A DNA stretch of 10,263 bases from a virus: UHGV virus genome UHGV-0135135; one strand, 5' to 3'. How positions within the stretch are numbered: the stretch's first letter is position 1; every line of letters starts with the position of its first letter. Under the pieces are notes generated by a model that was given only the letters and a program-made list of their open reading frames with translations, ran no database searches and was not told where the DNA came from. The position numbers and the translations under genes are program-made. This document shows, piece by piece, positions 1,201 through 9,864 of this stretch.

Positions 1201-1244
1201 AAAACTGTGTTAGAAAATAAAACTCAATTATCTAACACAGTTTT
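1201..1244. promoter_or_regulatory. Perfect 14-bp inverted repeat (AAAACTGTGTTAGA, 16-nt spacer, TCTAACACAGTTTT) between the spike-like gene and rdgC
   Basis: Read directly from the sequence; the two arms are exact reverse complements. Could form an AU-rich hairpin in the minus-strand transcript or act as a dimeric protein binding site. Function not determinable from sequence. Confidence 0.4.
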
Positions 1245-2910: not shown

Positions 2911-3678
2911 TTACTCCATTCTCAGAGAGGTTTCAGTAATAATTCGTTTCGCGTCCAGCTCCCAGGCGGTGATCACGTCTGCTATAACACTAATTGCCGT
3001 TTGTGCAGCATAAATACGCTCTTCCCCAATTGGGGCTGAAACATCAGTAAAACTGATGTCTTTAGCATCCTGAATCGCGCAAATTAGCGGGACGGGGACT
3101 CGTACCAGCGGGGTTGTTGCTTCAAACTGCGTTCCTGCCATCAAGCGAAGGCGTGCTCCAAGCGAATTACACATCAGACTCATGGTCGCCTTATCCGTCG
3201 CCATTAACGTAACGTCATACGTCATATTTGCCTGGGTGTATTCCAGGGCTACTAAAGGCATACCGCTGCCAGGTTCGCAGAAGTGATCACAGCTTTTGCG
3301 GTCTATCTGCTGGTCATTGTTGATATAGCTGATATCCATTGAGCGCGAGATATTAATCAGAGGGAGTGCATCGCGATTAATGTTCGGATTCTCTGGCTTT
3401 CTCCCTTGCCCGGCATTCGCACGGCGAACCGCTTTAAGGAACTCGACCGCATTATCAAAACGGGCAACATAAACACGCTCTGCTGGTGAGCGATTCAGGA
3501 ATGATGCAAAGCGCTTTTCTTCTTTTGCAGGTTCCACCAGCGTTACGTCAGAAAAAATGTCGCTGATTAGCGTAGCAAAAGCGTTATCCACTCTTTCCAG
3601 ACCAGTTGTCTGGAATTTTCCAGTACGCGTTGTCTGCCACTCGCCAATGCGGGACAGTAGAGTTTTGTTAGGTGTCAT
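2911..3678 (-). CDS. Hypothetical protein (255 aa), second gene of the coupled four-gene operon
   Basis: ATG at 3676-3678 overlaps the upstream stop (ATGA), with GGAG 7 nt upstream. No family recognised. Confidence 0.6.
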   Translation of the reverse strand: MTPNKTLLSRIGEWQTTRTGKFQTTGLERVDNAFATLISDIFSDVTLVEPAKEEKRFASFLNRSPAERVYVARFDNAVEFLKAVRRANAGQGRKPENPNINRDALPLINISRSMDISYINNDQQIDRKSCDHFCEPGSGMPLVALEYTQANMTYDVTLMATDKATMSLMCNSLGARLRLMAGTQFEATTPLVRVPVPLICAIQDAKDISFTDVSAPIGEERIYAAQTAISVIADVITAWELDAKRIITETSLRME

Positions 3679-4547
3679 TCGATCACTCCGTTTTGAGTGG
3701 TATCAAAGTTCCTGGCCGGGATGCAGTAATAAAGGGAACCAACGTGTTGTGTTCCGTAGCTGAAGATTCGATGCACGTACCACCAGCGGCGGGCGAGGCC
3801 ATTCGCCATTTCTTCGTTCCATTCCAGGATTGAACCAACAGGTACGTTGTTTGCAGCAATACGCAGGATTAGCACTTCATCAGCAAGACCATCCTGTTCT
3901 CCATCGGCATCAATGGCATGAAACGAATCCCTTCCGTCCGGGTTATCCAGGACGTATACGATTTCCGGTTCCAGATAGGCAAGCTCACGCTGGTTGTTGT
4001 CCAGTAGCGTGAAAGACTCTTCACCTGTTTCATCGTTTACGACGCCATAGGAGCCATCAGCCGGGCGATATAAAAGCGCCTCGAATGCGTCAGGGCTTGA
4101 TTCAATAATGAGCATCCAATCGGCGCGGATCTGGTCGTTGAACGCTTTGTGTCCGTTATATCGGGTTTTAAGCTGCTGGTTTGGTTGTCTGTTAGCGAGC
4201 GATGCCGGTAGGGGGGCGATGTCAGGTTCAATCACTTCCGTAACAGAGTCACCAGCATTATCAGGCCAATTATCATGGCGGCTATCTGCTTCGGTGGCAG
4301 CGTGTTCTTCCAGAATACTGAATGGCCCTGTACTGACCTTCCCATTTTCCGTTGTGCTTCCTTCATTCGCTTCAACCGTCGTTGTCTCTTCTCTCTGCGT
4401 GCTGTCATGTTCTGTTCCCTTTCTCATCAGGCTTGCATCATCAGCAAACCATTCATCAAAACGGCCCATAAGCGTCCTCAAAGGTCGATTTATCAGGTAT
4501 CGAGGGGCATTGTCAGGAGATTGTGATTTCAATTCATATCCCAGCAT
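3675..4547 (-). CDS. Hypothetical, strongly acidic protein (290 aa as drawn), first gene of the four-gene operon
   Basis: Long ORF rich in Asp/Glu. The ATG at 4545-4547 has no Shine-Dalgarno and overlaps an operator-like half-site; an internal ATG at 4467-4469 has a good GAGGA 5 nt upstream and may be the true start (264 aa). No family recognised. Confidence 0.55.
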   Translation of the reverse strand: MLGYELKSQSPDNAPRYLINRPLRTLMGRFDEWFADDASLMRKGTEHDSTQREETTTVEANEGSTTENGKVSTGPFSILEEHAATEADSRHDNWPDNAGDSVTEVIEPDIAPLPASLANRQPNQQLKTRYNGHKAFNDQIRADWMLIIESSPDAFEALLYRPADGSYGVVNDETGEESFTLLDNNQRELAYLEPEIVYVLDNPDGRDSFHAIDADGEQDGLADEVLILRIAANNVPVGSILEWNEEMANGLARRWWYVHRIFSYGTQHVGSLYYCIPARNFDTTQNGVIE

Positions 4548-6924: not shown

Positions 6925-7206
6925 TTATGCGTGGAAAAATAATGGACGGATGTTTGGGCGAGTGGTTTGCGAAGCAACCCAAAGCTCATACTGGGATTGC
7001 ATACCGGTCCACATTTCGGCACTGGTTCCAAGAGCGGACTCCAGACGAAGTGCCATATCAGCAGAAATACCTGCTTTTTCGTTCAGAATTCGGGAAAGCG
7101 CCGTGCGAGTAATGCCTAATGCAGCAGCGGCGTCTGTGACTGACATGTCTCCCAAATATTCACGAAGAACCGCGCCAGGATGCGCGGGATTATGCATACG
7201 ACTCAT
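6925..7206 (-). CDS. higA: HigA-family antitoxin (COG3093-like HTH)
   Basis: Start taken at the ATG giving [18 protein letters not shown]..., with GAGGA 5 nt upstream (ORF track extends to a TTG at 7218). The MHNPAHPG N-terminus and HTH region ([38 protein letters not shown]) match my recollection of HigA antidote proteins. Confidence 0.8.
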
Positions 7207-7214
7207 AGTGTTCC

Positions 7215-7496
7215 TCAATGATAATCCTGATAGTCAACTAGAATTGCGTCTTCTCCTTCAAATCGGAAGGTAAGTCGCCAGTTACCGTTTACCGATATTG
7301 CCCAGTGACCTTTAAGGTCCGCCCCCTTTAGTGGGTGCAATTCCCATCCAGGCGCAGACATATCGTCCGGGCGTTTAGCTGTATTAAGAGCAGTCAATTG
7401 AATGCGTAGCTTAACCGCATGTTTGGCCTGAATGCCTGCGGTTGAACCTGTCTTGAAAAAGCGTTCAAGCCCTTTATGGCGAAATGACTTAATCAA
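7215..7496 (-). CDS. higB: HigB-family toxin (RelE/ParE superfamily)
   Basis: 93-aa product (L)[13 protein letters not shown]...[21 protein letters not shown] closely parallels the classical HigB toxin as I recall it. Probable TTG start at 7494-7496; the ORF-track extension to 7559 also begins with TTG and is probably leader. Toxin upstream of antitoxin, as is usual for hig loci. Confidence 0.8.
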
Positions 7497-7521
7497 AATA
7501 ATTCCATCTGTGCGCGTAACC

Positions 7522-7533
7522 TGTGTATACACA
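7522..7533. promoter_or_regulatory. 12-bp perfect palindrome TGTGTATACACA in the leader of the second higB/higA
   Basis: Read directly from the sequence, about 25 nt upstream of the proposed higB start on the minus strand. Plausible HigA operator; function not verifiable here. Confidence 0.35.
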
Positions 7534-7693
7534 CTACACACAGAGAGAGCAAAATGCAAGCACTATCCGTATAGACAGAGTTTCTTCGCCGCCCTGAATT
7601 TATTGACTGTCAACAAGTGACTTTCATTAATCTTTATGCGGGGGCCAGCTTCATTTGCTGGCATTAGATTAAAAATTAAACGGAGTGAATGAC

Positions 7694-7828
7694 ATGGATG
7701 TTATCTTCGAATTATTAATGCTAATTGATCTGTTTATGAACGCTTCATTGACCACTCAAATACTCGCGTTAGTATTTTTGTTACTCTTCTATCTGGTATT
7801 AAGGGAGTTAACAAAGCTACTGAGTTGA
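7694..7828 (+). CDS. Candidate small hydrophobic protein (44 aa), absent from the ORF track
   Basis: Hand-translated ATG...TGA encoding MDVIFELLMLIDLFMNASLTTQILALVFLLLFYLVLRELTKLLS. GGAG sits 8 nt upstream of the ATG, and a candidate promoter (TTGACT at 7603-7608, 17-bp spacer, ATTAAT at 7626-7631) lies upstream. Contains one predicted transmembrane helix; its stop abuts the stop of the convergent 217-aa gene. May be a chance ORF in AT-rich DNA. Confidence 0.3.
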   Translation: MDVIFELLMLIDLFMNASLTTQILALVFLLLFYLVLRELTKLLS

Positions 7829-8482
7829 TTAAAGTATCACCGTATCTTCATCAATTACTTGCCCGGCCAGCGATTTTGGTTGGGTATTTCCTGCTTTAGC
7901 TTTTTGATCGCTGATAATGGACAGGAACGAGGCCATTATCCCTGCTTTGTTTTCTTTCTCTACCGAACCAGTCATTTGTTTCAGGTAATCCGCGCTGGCA
8001 ACATTGTGGTATACCGTTGCATAGCAGCACAGAATCATCAGGATGTGCTCTGGTCGGATATCTTGCCAGTTAACTCGATAAACCTCTTCACCGTTGCCGT
8101 TGTATTCGGTATCGACGATAGAGTCGGGGATCTCGAATGCCCCTTTGTTCTTGTCAGGCAGGGATAGCAGCCTTTGTAGTTTCAGCTCTCGGTATCTCTC
8201 CATGCCGACAATGATCGCCGCTCTGCCGTCGGCGTGCCGTGTTTTTAATGTTACCTGGCTGGCACCTGTACCGGCTGAAATAGTTGGCGTGATTTCGTCA
8301 ACCAGCACCTTAAATTCACTTTTACGCAGCTCGGCAATTGCTGGTGGAATTTTTCGTTTTTGTTCAATAGCAGATGCTGGGAGGGGCTTTACTTTGTCAA
8401 TTACAAGCGCACCGTCTTTCAGGACTGCCGTAGCCATCAGCGGCTTGTTAGTCGAAAGGCTGAATATTGCGATCTTTTGCAT
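7829..8482 (-). CDS. Hypothetical protein (217 aa)
   Basis: ATG at 8480-8482 with GGAG 8 nt upstream; single long ORF; no family recognised. Confidence 0.6.
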   Translation of the reverse strand: MQKIAIFSLSTNKPLMATAVLKDGALVIDKVKPLPASAIEQKRKIPPAIAELRKSEFKVLVDEITPTISAGTGASQVTLKTRHADGRAAIIVGMERYRELKLQRLLSLPDKNKGAFEIPDSIVDTEYNGNGEEVYRVNWQDIRPEHILMILCCYATVYHNVASADYLKQMTGSVEKENKAGIMASFLSIISDQKAKAGNTQPKSLAGQVIDEDTVIL

Positions 8483-8508
8483 GGCTTTTACTCCACGATA
8501 GCAGGCAC

Positions 8509-8533
8509 AAAAAAAGGCCGCACATGGCGGCCT
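8509..8533 (-). terminator. Rho-independent terminator in minus orientation, immediately upstream of the 217-aa gene
   Basis: On the minus strand: 7-bp GC-rich stem AGGCCGC / GCGGCCT with a 5-nt loop followed by seven T residues (plus-strand A-run 8509-8515, stem 8515-8533). It ends about 27 nt before the gene's start codon. Confidence 0.55.
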
Positions 8534-8747
8534 GCTTTGGCGTTATGACTCCCTACCGCGCATCGGCTGAAAGTTAGTCGTCAAAAGAACCTTCAACGGG
8601 AGCCGTTTGCGCAATGGATTTTGTCCAGATTGTGATTTCCAGAATAGTGTCAACAATTTTTTTGAATTTTTTATTCGCGCTGAATTTGGCCTAAGTCATT
8701 TTGGCGGAGATGTTTTCTTTTGTAACATAAAACTTCAGTTTGTTTAC

Positions 8748-9377
8748 ATGAAGGATGGTTTTGTGAAGTTAAGGGTTTTGGGAGCAGTGCTCGCGGTTAT
8801 ATTGGGGGGAGTTTCTCTTAATGCTGCCTATGCAGGCGCGTTACCTGCAAAGTATGAGGCTGGACTGAAGGTGTTGCGAAACGCCAAAACAAACTATACG
8901 CCTGATGAAGTTTCAAACTATTGCCAGAAAGAAAATATCCCACTGAAACCTGTAGAGCCATTCTTTAAAAGCAACATTGAGTTCTGTGTATTGGCATATG
9001 CAGCAGATGAAACAGGCAAAGCCATACAAAAGACAGGGTATTCCACCAAAGACACAATGTCGGTGTTAAGTAACGGCGTGTTGCAGTTTGAGCTTTATCG
9101 TCAGCAAGGAATGGGAGATCTATTGCAGCCTTTGTATGTGCTGGCTTGGGTGCCTGAAGGGCAGCAGTTTCTTATCCGGAAAGGGATGCTTCGGCAAAGT
9201 GATGTGGCAGGATTCAATAACATGATGGAACTTGAACGATCCGCGAAGCAAAAACAAGCACCTAAGCAACCTACAGCGGAATGCATTCGTAGTGAGATCC
9301 AAAAGATATTAAGTGAGCAGCCTTACATTGATCGTGGGGTAGCCGAAGTCGCTGCAAAAATGGAATGTACTAATTAA
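8748..9377 (+). CDS. Hypothetical secreted or periplasmic protein with N-terminal signal peptide
   Basis: The ORF-track start at 8607 is almost certainly a non-coding AT-rich extension. Likely start is the ATG at 8748 or the GTG at 8763 (AAGGA 7 nt upstream), giving MKLRVLGAVLAVILGGVSLNAAYA followed by an AXA-type cleavage site. Mature part has 4 Cys. No family recognised. Confidence 0.6.
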   Translation: MKDGFVKLRVLGAVLAVILGGVSLNAAYAGALPAKYEAGLKVLRNAKTNYTPDEVSNYCQKENIPLKPVEPFFKSNIEFCVLAYAADETGKAIQKTGYSTKDTMSVLSNGVLQFELYRQQGMGDLLQPLYVLAWVPEGQQFLIRKGMLRQSDVAGFNNMMELERSAKQKQAPKQPTAECIRSEIQKILSEQPYIDRGVAEVAAKMECTN

Positions 9378-9384
9378 CCTCAAA

Positions 9385-9864
9385 TTGGATGAAAAGGCAA
9401 CAATGTCTGGAGTTAATGAAATGATACGCATAAAAAAAGAGAAACCATTTTCTTCAACAAAGACATCAAACTTGAATAAGCTGGCTATAGCGGCATTAAT
9501 GTTTTTTCCTTTGGTTGCTAATGCTGGGAATTTGCAGGTAAAGTGCGGTAGGTTTGATATAAAAATCTATCCGAACGCCATATTTCTGAATGGGAATAAG
9601 GTTGATAACGCGCACCGGAAAACTGAATCTGACGTAATGAGCTATGTGTTCCAGGAGTATGCCGAGATGGGGGGAACTTACACGTTGTACTCGCTGGATG
9701 TTCCTTCTCGCGGTGATATGACGTTATCTCATCAATGGCAGAACGCCGATGGCGAAGCTCTGCGCGAGGTTAAAACAGAAAAATGTGGCACTTTCCATTC
9801 TTTTAAAGGGAAAGCGCCCAATGTTAAATCTACGCTTGAAAAACAGCTTGCTGGTGAGCTTTAA
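9385..9864 (+). CDS. Hypothetical small secreted protein with signal peptide
   Basis: ORF begins 8 nt after the previous stop. Alternative ATG starts at 9385, 9403 and 9421; all precede a signal-peptide-like segment (KLAIAALMFFPLVANA then G). Two Cys in the mature part. No family recognised. Confidence 0.55.
   Translation: MDEKATMSGVNEMIRIKKEKPFSSTKTSNLNKLAIAALMFFPLVANAGNLQVKCGRFDIKIYPNAIFLNGNKVDNAHRKTESDVMSYVFQEYAEMGGTYTLYSLDVPSRGDMTLSHQWQNADGEALREVKTEKCGTFHSFKGKAPNVKSTLEKQLAGEL

Follow-up and report, generated by a model that had tools for sequence, protein, structure and literature searches.

In Shiga-toxin lambdoid phages, the short PR'-tR' transcript StxS starts at a late promoter and stops at an intrinsic terminator that closely precedes late genes; these genes need read-through of that terminator. 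The short RNA itself acts in trans by base pairing, including an anti-antisense activation of rpoS (Sy, Lan and Tree, 2020; PMC7547250). In the Gifsy-1 prophage, one promoter gives both a short terminated RNA (IsrK) and a read-through mRNA, and the short form turns on, in trans, the translation of an mRNA whose structure makes it inactive (Hershko-Shalev et al., 2016; PMC4825925). Our results suggest that the mat locus of the P1-family phage-plasmids combines similar features. We analysed a stretch of 10,263 nt from UHGV virus genome UHGV-0135135 (the window), which belongs to a D6-like P1-family phage-plasmid and is 92-98% identical to D6-like phage-plasmids of E. coli. Its minus strand carries a homologue of P1 mat (maturation control), and the leader upstream of this gene ends in a hairpin followed by seven T residues. 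We consider it probable, though far from settled, that this hairpin is the terminator of a late, trans-acting small RNA pairing with the leader of the capsid (gene 23) mRNA, and that transcription reaches mat and the baseplate operon by reading through it.

The likeness to StxS lies in the terminated late transcript, in the read-through that the downstream genes need and in the pairing in trans, which here is predicted from the sequence. However, lysogens make StxS from a constitutive promoter, its read-through depends on Q and its targets are stx1 and the host rpoS (PMC7547250). The mat leader, in contrast, follows a promoter of the late, activator-dependent type, has no known antiterminator, would target the phage's own capsid mRNA and has no sequence or Rfam relation to StxS. 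The target of IsrK is the read-through form of its own transcript (orf45/anrP), which leads on to the antiterminator AntQ (PMC4825925), whereas the target that covaries with the mat leader belongs to a different operon, 18-56 kb away. The layout also resembles lambda PR'-6S-tR' with its late antitermination by Q at qut; the annotations of D6 and P1 contain no Q-like gene, and no search aimed at the Q family was made.

The immunity RNAs c4 of P1 and P7, CI of P4 and CA of N15 are cut or terminated from the leader of a phage operon and pair with phage mRNA through short loops. They act on their own operon, where they block the antirepressor or cause premature termination, and they serve immunity and lysogeny. 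IsrK belongs to the C4-like group. The mat leader RNA would likewise be derived from a leader and pair with phage mRNA through a loop, and c4 occurs in the same phage family; but the mat leader is driven by a late-type promoter, lies before mat and has a structural gene as its predicted target. C4 antisense RNA (RF01695) was considered as a candidate and rejected, because neither the window nor the P1 mat region gave a match at E<=1 and the context is wrong: C4 stands upstream of icd/ant-type genes, and in D6 and the nearest plasmid icd/ant lie ~3 kb off in a separate unit. The whole search with Rfam 15 at E<=1 on the window, the P1 mat region and two capsid leaders returned nothing relevant; the matches elsewhere were at chance level.

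Anatomy and conservation of the mat leader

On the minus strand of the window, a TTGACA element is followed by a late-type promoter, a G+C-balanced stretch of ~75 nt, the hairpin with its T7, 26 nt with a GGAG and the ATG of mat. To compare this arrangement, mat loci were drawn from IMG/VR, species-representative genomes, metagenomes, assemblies with specific homologues and plasmids. The Mat proteins of the collected loci ranged from 100% down to ~39% identity to that of the window, with P1 at 33%. The scan of species-representative genomes gave four loci, and a loose DNA pattern scan of viral contigs yielded mostly chance matches. The order of promoter, leader, hairpin, T-run and mat was present at all D6-type and intermediate loci in the covariance model test (41 of 41) and in all 53 distinct upstream sequences among 115 D6-type and P1-type loci. 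Every enterobacterial lineage with an intact locus had a leader ending in a GC hairpin and a T-run, 20-70 nt before the start of mat. For example, P1 has LPmat at 2678-2696 (-22 box 2678-2686, -10 2691-2696), a leader of ~85 nt, a hairpin at 2787-2805 (AAGCCGCC-GCU-GGUGGCUU, then UUUUCUUUUUU), GGGGG and an ATG at 2827. There were two exceptions. In locus L282 (45-115) the end of an IS1 was inserted inside the leader between GCG and CGCGG, and in L280 (1117-1187) the leader upstream of the hairpin was replaced by unrelated DNA, with hairpin and mat kept.

The promoter (8638-8618, minus strand) is of the P1 late (Lpa) type, with the box AAATCACAATC at 8638-8628, the 4-nt spacer TGGA and the -10 element CAAAAT at 8623-8618. 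All D6-type and intermediate lineages carried A[AG]T[CA]ACAAAC, 4 nt and a -10-like hexamer upstream of the leader, and at the annotated P1 promoters LPmat and LP23 a -22 box of analogous kind (AAGTGACTT) is followed after 4 nt by a -10. In D6, the box, a spacer of 4-5 nt and a -10 precede the mat leader, gene 7, pmgB/sit, R/S, lydA, ddrB and also gene 23, and the operons with this box correspond to P1 late operons. We infer that the promoter at 8638-8618 is active as a late promoter and starts transcription at ~8611-8615, a position placed by the usual spacing of ~7 nt from the -10; this predicted start coincides with the beginning of the closing helix described below. The TTGACA element (8653-8648, minus strand) lies upstream of the late promoter, and its TTGAC is kept at this position in most lineages. 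Its distance to the -10 is 24 nt, too far for a standard sigma-70 -35 element. A second exact copy of AAATCACAATC occurs elsewhere in the window (4529-4519, minus strand), followed by TCCTG and ACAAT and upstream of a homologue of the tail gene 7. It falls inside the listed open reading frame (ORF) 3675-4547, whose true start is probably farther downstream.

The earlier note on this DNA had described a hairpin and seven U residues 27 nt upstream of a 217-residue ORF. Its coordinates and distance were correct, with the last T at 8509 and the A of the ATG at 8482. The terminator (8533-8509, minus strand) reads AGGCCGC-CAUGU-GCGGCCU and then U7; the stem, 8533 to 8515, has 7 bp (six G-C) and a 5-nt loop, the TTTTTTT extends to 8509 and the fold has -13.1 kcal/mol. 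A terminator scan over 2 kb found five such sites where 2.5 were expected from shuffles, so a single terminator-like site proves little by itself. The hairpin and T-run upstream of mat were kept in ~130 related loci, with compensatory changes in the stem. Among the relatives we found GGCCGCC/GCGGCC, AGCCGCC/GGCGGCU, GCCGCC/GGCGGC and, in P1, AAGCCGCC/GGUGGCUU, the stems of L032, L120 and P1 being different. In the model-based alignment, 99.2% of the cells in this stem were paired and two pairs changed on both sides.

From the late-promoter start to the U-tract, the predicted leader RNA measures ~100-105 nt (8614-8509, minus strand; the 5' end follows from the promoter geometry). Single-sequence folds of several lineages gave the same three-way junction of helices P1, P2 and P3, followed by an A-rich linker and the terminator. 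In the window, the closing helix P1 pairs GGCUCCC (8604-8598) with GGGAGUC (8553-8547), and the flanking GCG (8612-8610) can pair with CGC (8543-8541) beside it. Hairpin P2 (8594-8569) pairs GAAGGUU (8594-8588) with AACUUUC (8575-8569) around the loop CUUUUGACGACU, which across lineages reads CUUUUGAC(G/A)A. The short hairpin P3 pairs GCCG (8567-8564) with CGGU (8558-8555), and its 3' side contains the motif GCGCGG (8561-8556), whose columns were invariant in D6-type and intermediate leaders. All these elements are on the minus strand. The leader has no conserved ORF. A leader-peptide attenuator was also considered and rejected, as the ATG ORF of the window leader is absent in D6 and the P1 ATG at 2716 is out of frame in many loci.

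A covariance model built on the three-way-junction structure (R1) scored 116.8 bits in the window (8498-8620, minus strand) and 121.9 bits in D6, with one strong match per phage genome, and it matched 41 of the 41 related loci at E<=1e-5. Two distant members reached 41 and 34 bits; unrelated control loci gave weak scores of at most 25 bits. Clades that vary in their promoter spacers and Mat proteins had a near-invariant leader. In the model alignment, 76.7% of the cells were paired, compared with 69.9% in shuffles and at most 62% with slid partners, and changes on both sides occurred in 20 of the 31 modelled pairs (11.8 in shuffles). Pairing gave good support to three helices, namely the terminator, the closing helix (P1b, helix 2 of the model; 86.5% paired, both-sided changes at five of six pairs) and P2 (helices 3 and 4; 79-100% paired, both-sided changes at six of seven pairs). 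The closing helix was present in every lineage but differed in sequence; besides the window form, it occurred as UUUCC/GGAGA (within GCGUUAA..GUUUCC/GGAGAC..UUAACGC), AGAUUCUUU/AAAGAAUCU, CGAACC/GGUUCG, UCUGG/CCAGA and, in P1, GCCCGGUAC/GUACCGGGC. When its strands were combined within and between lineages, cognate duplexes had a mean of -18.5 kcal/mol and non-cognate ones -11.6 kcal/mol (sd 3.8).

Complementarity between the leader and the capsid mRNA

When the D6 genome was scanned for complements of its mat leader, one perfect match of 17 nt appeared, and elsewhere in the 91 kb the matches reached at most 11 nt. The leader segment UGAAGGUUCUUUUGACG, which is the 5' arm and loop of P2, is complementary to CGUCAAAAGAACCUUCA at 54118-54102 (minus strand). 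This site occupies the stretch 28-44 nt before the GTG with which gene 23 (major capsid protein) starts, and it follows directly on the late promoter TTGACT-AAATCACAAAG-TAGG-TATTGT. By chance, ~1e-3 such matches would be expected (~85 leader windows x 1.8e5 positions / 4^17). The corresponding seed in the window is UGAAGGUUCUUUUGACGA (8595-8578, minus strand), again the P2 5' arm and loop, and its complement stands at the 5' end of the gene 23 mRNA of the same phage type. Gene 23 lies outside the window; on a contig whose Mat is 100% identical to that of the window, the capsid 5' untranslated region (5'UTR) begins with ..CUCGUCAAAAGAAUCUUCAC.. and its site UCGUCAAAAGAAUCUUCA forms 18 contiguous pairs with the seed, one of them G.U. 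In P1, the leader segment UGGAUCCCUUUUC (2717-2729) is complementary to GAAAAGGGAUUCA (58817-58805), right after the annotated LP23.

We then compared mat and capsid leaders in pairs taken from the same contigs. The complementarity was present in eight lineages: window-type, D6, L032-type, Salmonella-type, Klebsiella/Citrobacter-type, Pantoea-type, the type with 39% Mat identity, and P1. The L032-type seed UGAGGGUUCUUUUGACG pairs with UGUCAAAAGAACUUUCA in a helix that includes three G.U, and the Salmonella-type seed GAGGGUACUUUUGACA with UGUCAAAAGUAACCUC with one G.A. In the Klebsiella/Citrobacter type, GGUACUUUUGAC and GUCAAAAGUAAC form 10 contiguous bp with a G.A next to them, while the Pantoea-type seed GAUGGAAUUUUUGAC forms 12 contiguous bp with GUCAAAAAUUCCCUC. 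The pair of the 39%-identity type, AGCUUUUUCGACG and CGUCGAAAAGCU, contains a matched C/G insertion. The longest contiguous helix between seed and target was 10-18 bp for cognate and 5-10 bp for non-cognate pairs. Duplex energies of the whole sequences failed to separate cognate and non-cognate pairs, owing to promiscuous pairing of G+C-rich segments; the length of the contiguous helix did discriminate.

The seed and the capsid-mRNA site covary, with compensatory exchanges. Three seed positions (7-9) switched pairs, twice from U-A to A-U and once from C-G through U.G to U-A. Among the non-Watson-Crick cells of the core there were 10 G.U and three A.C, and two of the three A.C came from one truncated, mis-anchored row. 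Furthermore, the leader and capsid sites lie on the same DNA strand in D6 and on opposite strands in P1. This difference in strand relation, together with the bias to G.U, argues for selection on RNA-RNA pairing and not on a DNA motif. The P2 loop has a YUNR-type turn, UUGA in the window and UUCA in P1; turns of this type are found in many fast-pairing antisense loops. A second contact between GCGCGG of the leader and CCGCGC of the capsid 5'UTR is tentative and ambiguous, as the 5' segment of the leader can pair with the same stretch.

In the predicted folds of the capsid 5'UTRs of all non-P1 lineages, the start codon was paired with a segment abutting or overlapping the seed site. The helices were UUCACG/CGUGAA in D6, CUCACA/UGUGAG in the Salmonella type and CUCGCAG/UUGUGAG in the Pantoea type; in P1, AUUCA/UGAGU forms over the UUG. 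The predicted probability of an unpaired start codon was 0.16-0.26 in the seven non-P1 lineages. In D6 (L309, 9075-9160, minus strand) and in L375-L427, an outer helix pairs the GUG start and the second codon with the UTR, and an inner hairpin GCCC/GGGC holds the Shine-Dalgarno sequence AGGG. One base pair that joins the UTR to codon 2 (AAU versus AGC/AGU) covaries. A start codon paired beside the seed site has the geometry of an anti-antisense switch, which favours activation of capsid translation. We would give activation about an even chance, with repression, stabilisation or no effect on translation as the other outcomes. DsrA, RprA and ArcZ, which act on rpoS, are host stress small RNAs whose Hfq dependence was shown experimentally. 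As in those cases, the initiation region of the target is paired and the site of the small RNA lies on the upstream strand of the helix; unlike in those cases, activation is here a prediction, and opening in silico was seen in three of eight lineages. Circumstantially, P1vir particles grown on an hfq mutant had thinner tails and heads of reduced size, and the burst was lower (bioRxiv 10.64898/2025.12.28.696737).

According to the mechanism we propose, a non-coding RNA of ~100 nt would be transcribed late in the lytic cycle from the Lpa-type promoter. It would fold into the three-way junction, with the closing helix, hairpin P2 with its U-rich loop and the short P3, and with the A-rich linker and the terminator after it. 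Transcripts ended at the terminator would accumulate as small RNA. Those that read through would encode Mat and, in most relatives, also the products of the baseplate genes 26 and 25, which are directly coupled to mat there. The 5' arm and loop of P2 would be the antisense seed for the first ~12-18 nt of the gene 23 mRNA, which would be made from a separate late promoter. In that mRNA the leader helix would bury the GUG or UUG start, with the seed site overlapping its 5' strand. Pairing would then open this helix and activate capsid translation in the anti-antisense manner; protection of the mRNA 5' end is a further possibility.

Read-through, contrary evidence and rival explanations

The gap from the T-run to the ATG measures 26 nt and holds the Shine-Dalgarno sequence. 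As this leaves no room for a promoter, mat would be transcribed by read-through. A promoter between the hairpin and the start codon, the finding which the earlier note had named as speaking against its own view, was looked for and rejected: besides the shortness of the gap and the Shine-Dalgarno sequence within it, the promoter scan found none. The promoter of its own, out of sight, that the note had allowed for the gene is unsupported on the same grounds. Among the arrangements offered there, a small minus-strand RNA at ~8534-8620 with the hairpin as its 3' end fits best, with a predicted late-type start at ~8611-8615 and an end at 8509. The attenuator offered as the other option was right in so far as mat needs read-through of the terminator, but it describes the hairpin less aptly than the 3' end of a small RNA does.

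Several results weigh against a small RNA that pairs with the capsid mRNA. The enterobacterial leader was absent from a Vibrio alginolyticus plasmid (NZ_CP046807, L428; Mat 32% identical), where mat stands directly after ref behind a 97-nt gap (19892-19988) with a different 12-bp hairpin and no T-run. The terminator looks strong in the window and P1 and weaker in Pantoea-type loci, whose U-tract is interrupted (UUUCGCCUUUU), so that termination there may be weak. The P1-type leader, though of the same architecture, scored 15 bits (E 0.14) with the D6-type model, which leaves homology between the two leader types unsupported. In the model alignment, P1a was paired in 51% and P3 in 59% of the cells, which is poor support. 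This is partly because the lineages differ in register: the MAFFT and first-pass model alignments were out of consistent register for P1a and P3, and the pair counts understate both helices. The minimum-free-energy fold of the window and D6 leaders was a long hairpin, in which AGCCG..GCGC is the partner of the 5' segment, and not the three-way junction. In the Klebsiella and Salmonella types, the contiguous helix with the target was 10-11 bp only, with a G.A mismatch nearby. Finally, when the seed site was blocked in silico, start-codon accessibility rose clearly in no more than three of the eight lineages.

The main rival reverses the direction of control. In such a case, the 5' end of the capsid mRNA, or another RNA, would pair with the nascent leader, which would act as a cis attenuator and set the read-through into the mat/baseplate operon; expression of DNA maturation and baseplate genes would be coupled to the level of capsid mRNA. 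The same complementarity and covariation apply to it. Read-through is obligatory, mat having no other promoter, the leaders of the window and D6 have two alternative folds, and by inspection of the sequence the invariant GCGCGGU(U) could pair with the terminator 5' arm GGCCGC. We still regard it as unlikely, since no conserved, seed-dependent alternative of antiterminator and terminator could be demonstrated, the terminator hairpin was structurally independent of P1-P3 in the folds, and the conserved helix that sequesters the start codon beside the capsid target would stay unexplained.

Distinctly unlikely, in our opinion, is a plain attenuator or insulator, in which a constitutively leaky terminator lowers what a strong late promoter yields of mat and the low-copy baseplate genes, or blocks stray transcription from upstream, the short RNA being a by-product. 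Short terminated phage transcripts do occur as regulatory by-products (PMC7547250). The terminator is canonical, and the downstream baseplate genes are needed in few copies per virion. Such a device does not account for ~75 nt before the hairpin that are near-invariant while promoter spacers and Mat diverge, nor for covarying helices and a cognate-specific complementarity to the capsid leader in eight lineages.

A three-way junction followed by an intrinsic terminator is a common riboswitch layout, and the HK022 put RNAs sit between promoter and terminators. The junction could on these grounds be a riboswitch-like aptamer for a ligand or protein, or a put-like RNA that renders RNA polymerase resistant to termination, and in this way control the terminator in cis. 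We hold this to be improbable: besides the empty Rfam search at E<=1, no conserved alternative pairing with the terminator was found, the junction loops were not strikingly conserved beyond GCGCGG, and the most conserved unpaired stretch is the very one that covaries with a distant mRNA.

It is very improbable that the complementarity is a coincidence or a DNA-level feature such as a shared protein site after late promoters, for although the two sites closely follow similar late promoters and have in common an A/T-rich core (GUCAAAAG/CUUUUGAC) that is invariant in most lineages, this reading is opposed by the low chance expectation of the perfect 17-nt match in D6, by compensatory changes at the flanking positions with wobbles of G.U rather than A.C, by a relation of the sites that is inverted in D6 and direct in P1, and by other D6 late leaders that lack the site.

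The mat gene and late control in the P1 family

The need for Mat in particle maturation is a genetic property of P1 amber mutants. In the window, mat is the 217-residue ORF at 8482-7829 (minus strand), with an ATG start and the Shine-Dalgarno sequence GGAG at 8494-8491. The earlier note could assign this protein to no family. Indeed, sequence searches of Pfam, NCBIfam and PDB with the 217-residue protein gave no match, but it matched PHROG 1837 (E 6.6e-90) and the Mat proteins of P1 and P7 (33% identity over 94% of its length, E 1e-30, tblastn), and the alignment including P1 Mat had 28 invariant columns. Judged by sequence, the ORF is a homologue of P1 Mat and no orphan. Its counterpart in D6, orf78, is annotated as "similar to P1 gene mat". 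The protein may be a DNA-processing enzyme of the RNase H fold, and a literature table gives mat as essential (PMC10695390). The region 7600-9400 of the window matched ~100 E. coli plasmids of ~90 kb each, with 98% identity to NZ_CP159120.1 and 82% to phage D6.

In D6 and the window, the neighbours of mat are homologues of P1 genes 26, 25, 7, 24, 6 and 5. The stop of mat overlaps the start of gene 26 in most relatives, and the leader therefore heads a mat-baseplate operon. In the window, a gene for a HigB-type toxin (7215-7559, minus strand; Pfam PF05015, E 1e-20) is inserted between mat and gene 26, and it is overlapped by an ORF of 97 residues (6925-7218, minus strand), presumably the antitoxin.

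GenBank (L003, AF234172) starts P1 Mat at 2716, in a frame that runs across the leader hairpin. Many P1-type loci have a 4G/5G indel ahead of the ATG at 2827, which breaks the frame from 2716, and the homology of all other Mat proteins with P1 Mat begins at 2827. Based on the common start and the frame-breaking indel, 2827 is very probably the true start, and the GenBank start would be wrong, adding an N-terminal extension of 37 residues. On the other side of the leader, ORF 8607-9377 (plus strand) overlaps the leader RNA if it begins with the TTG at 8607, the start that RefSeq also uses in the nearest plasmid. Its PHROG match begins at residue 48 and D6 orf79 starts at an ATG equivalent to 8748, so the true intergenic region is probably 8483-8747. 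Far from the locus, between two minus-strand ORFs, the window has a perfect 13-bp inverted repeat, AAACUGUGUUAGA...UCUAACACAGUUU (1202-1243, minus strand). It surfaced as a chance-level Rfam match to mir-8 (E 0.79) and may be a terminator or an operator.

Few phages have been studied as much as P1, and phage-plasmids related to it are widespread in Enterobacterales, where they often carry resistance genes. In the literature searched, which did not cover the P1 and D6 genome papers, we found neither an RNA from the mat leader nor control of P1 gene 23 by a small RNA described, and the link between the mat leader and the capsid mRNA has apparently not been described before. Late control in P1 has so far been described as the Lpa activator and its late promoters; a small RNA would add a post-transcriptional layer to morphogenesis. 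Phage small RNAs with a conserved target in a structural gene of their own phage are rare, and this would be one of them. The same transcript would work as a small RNA if it is terminated and as an mRNA if polymerase reads on. More tentatively, and with the balance rather against it than for it, the RNA might act as a licence for heads, with translation or stability of the capsid mRNA depending on the small RNA from the mat/baseplate leader in a gate with two late-promoter inputs. If this is true, the gate would coordinate the head, tail and DNA-processing modules, since capsid would be made only once a second, independent late promoter fires. It might also prevent a plasmid prophage from releasing stray capsid, a protein that is sensed by several host defence systems.

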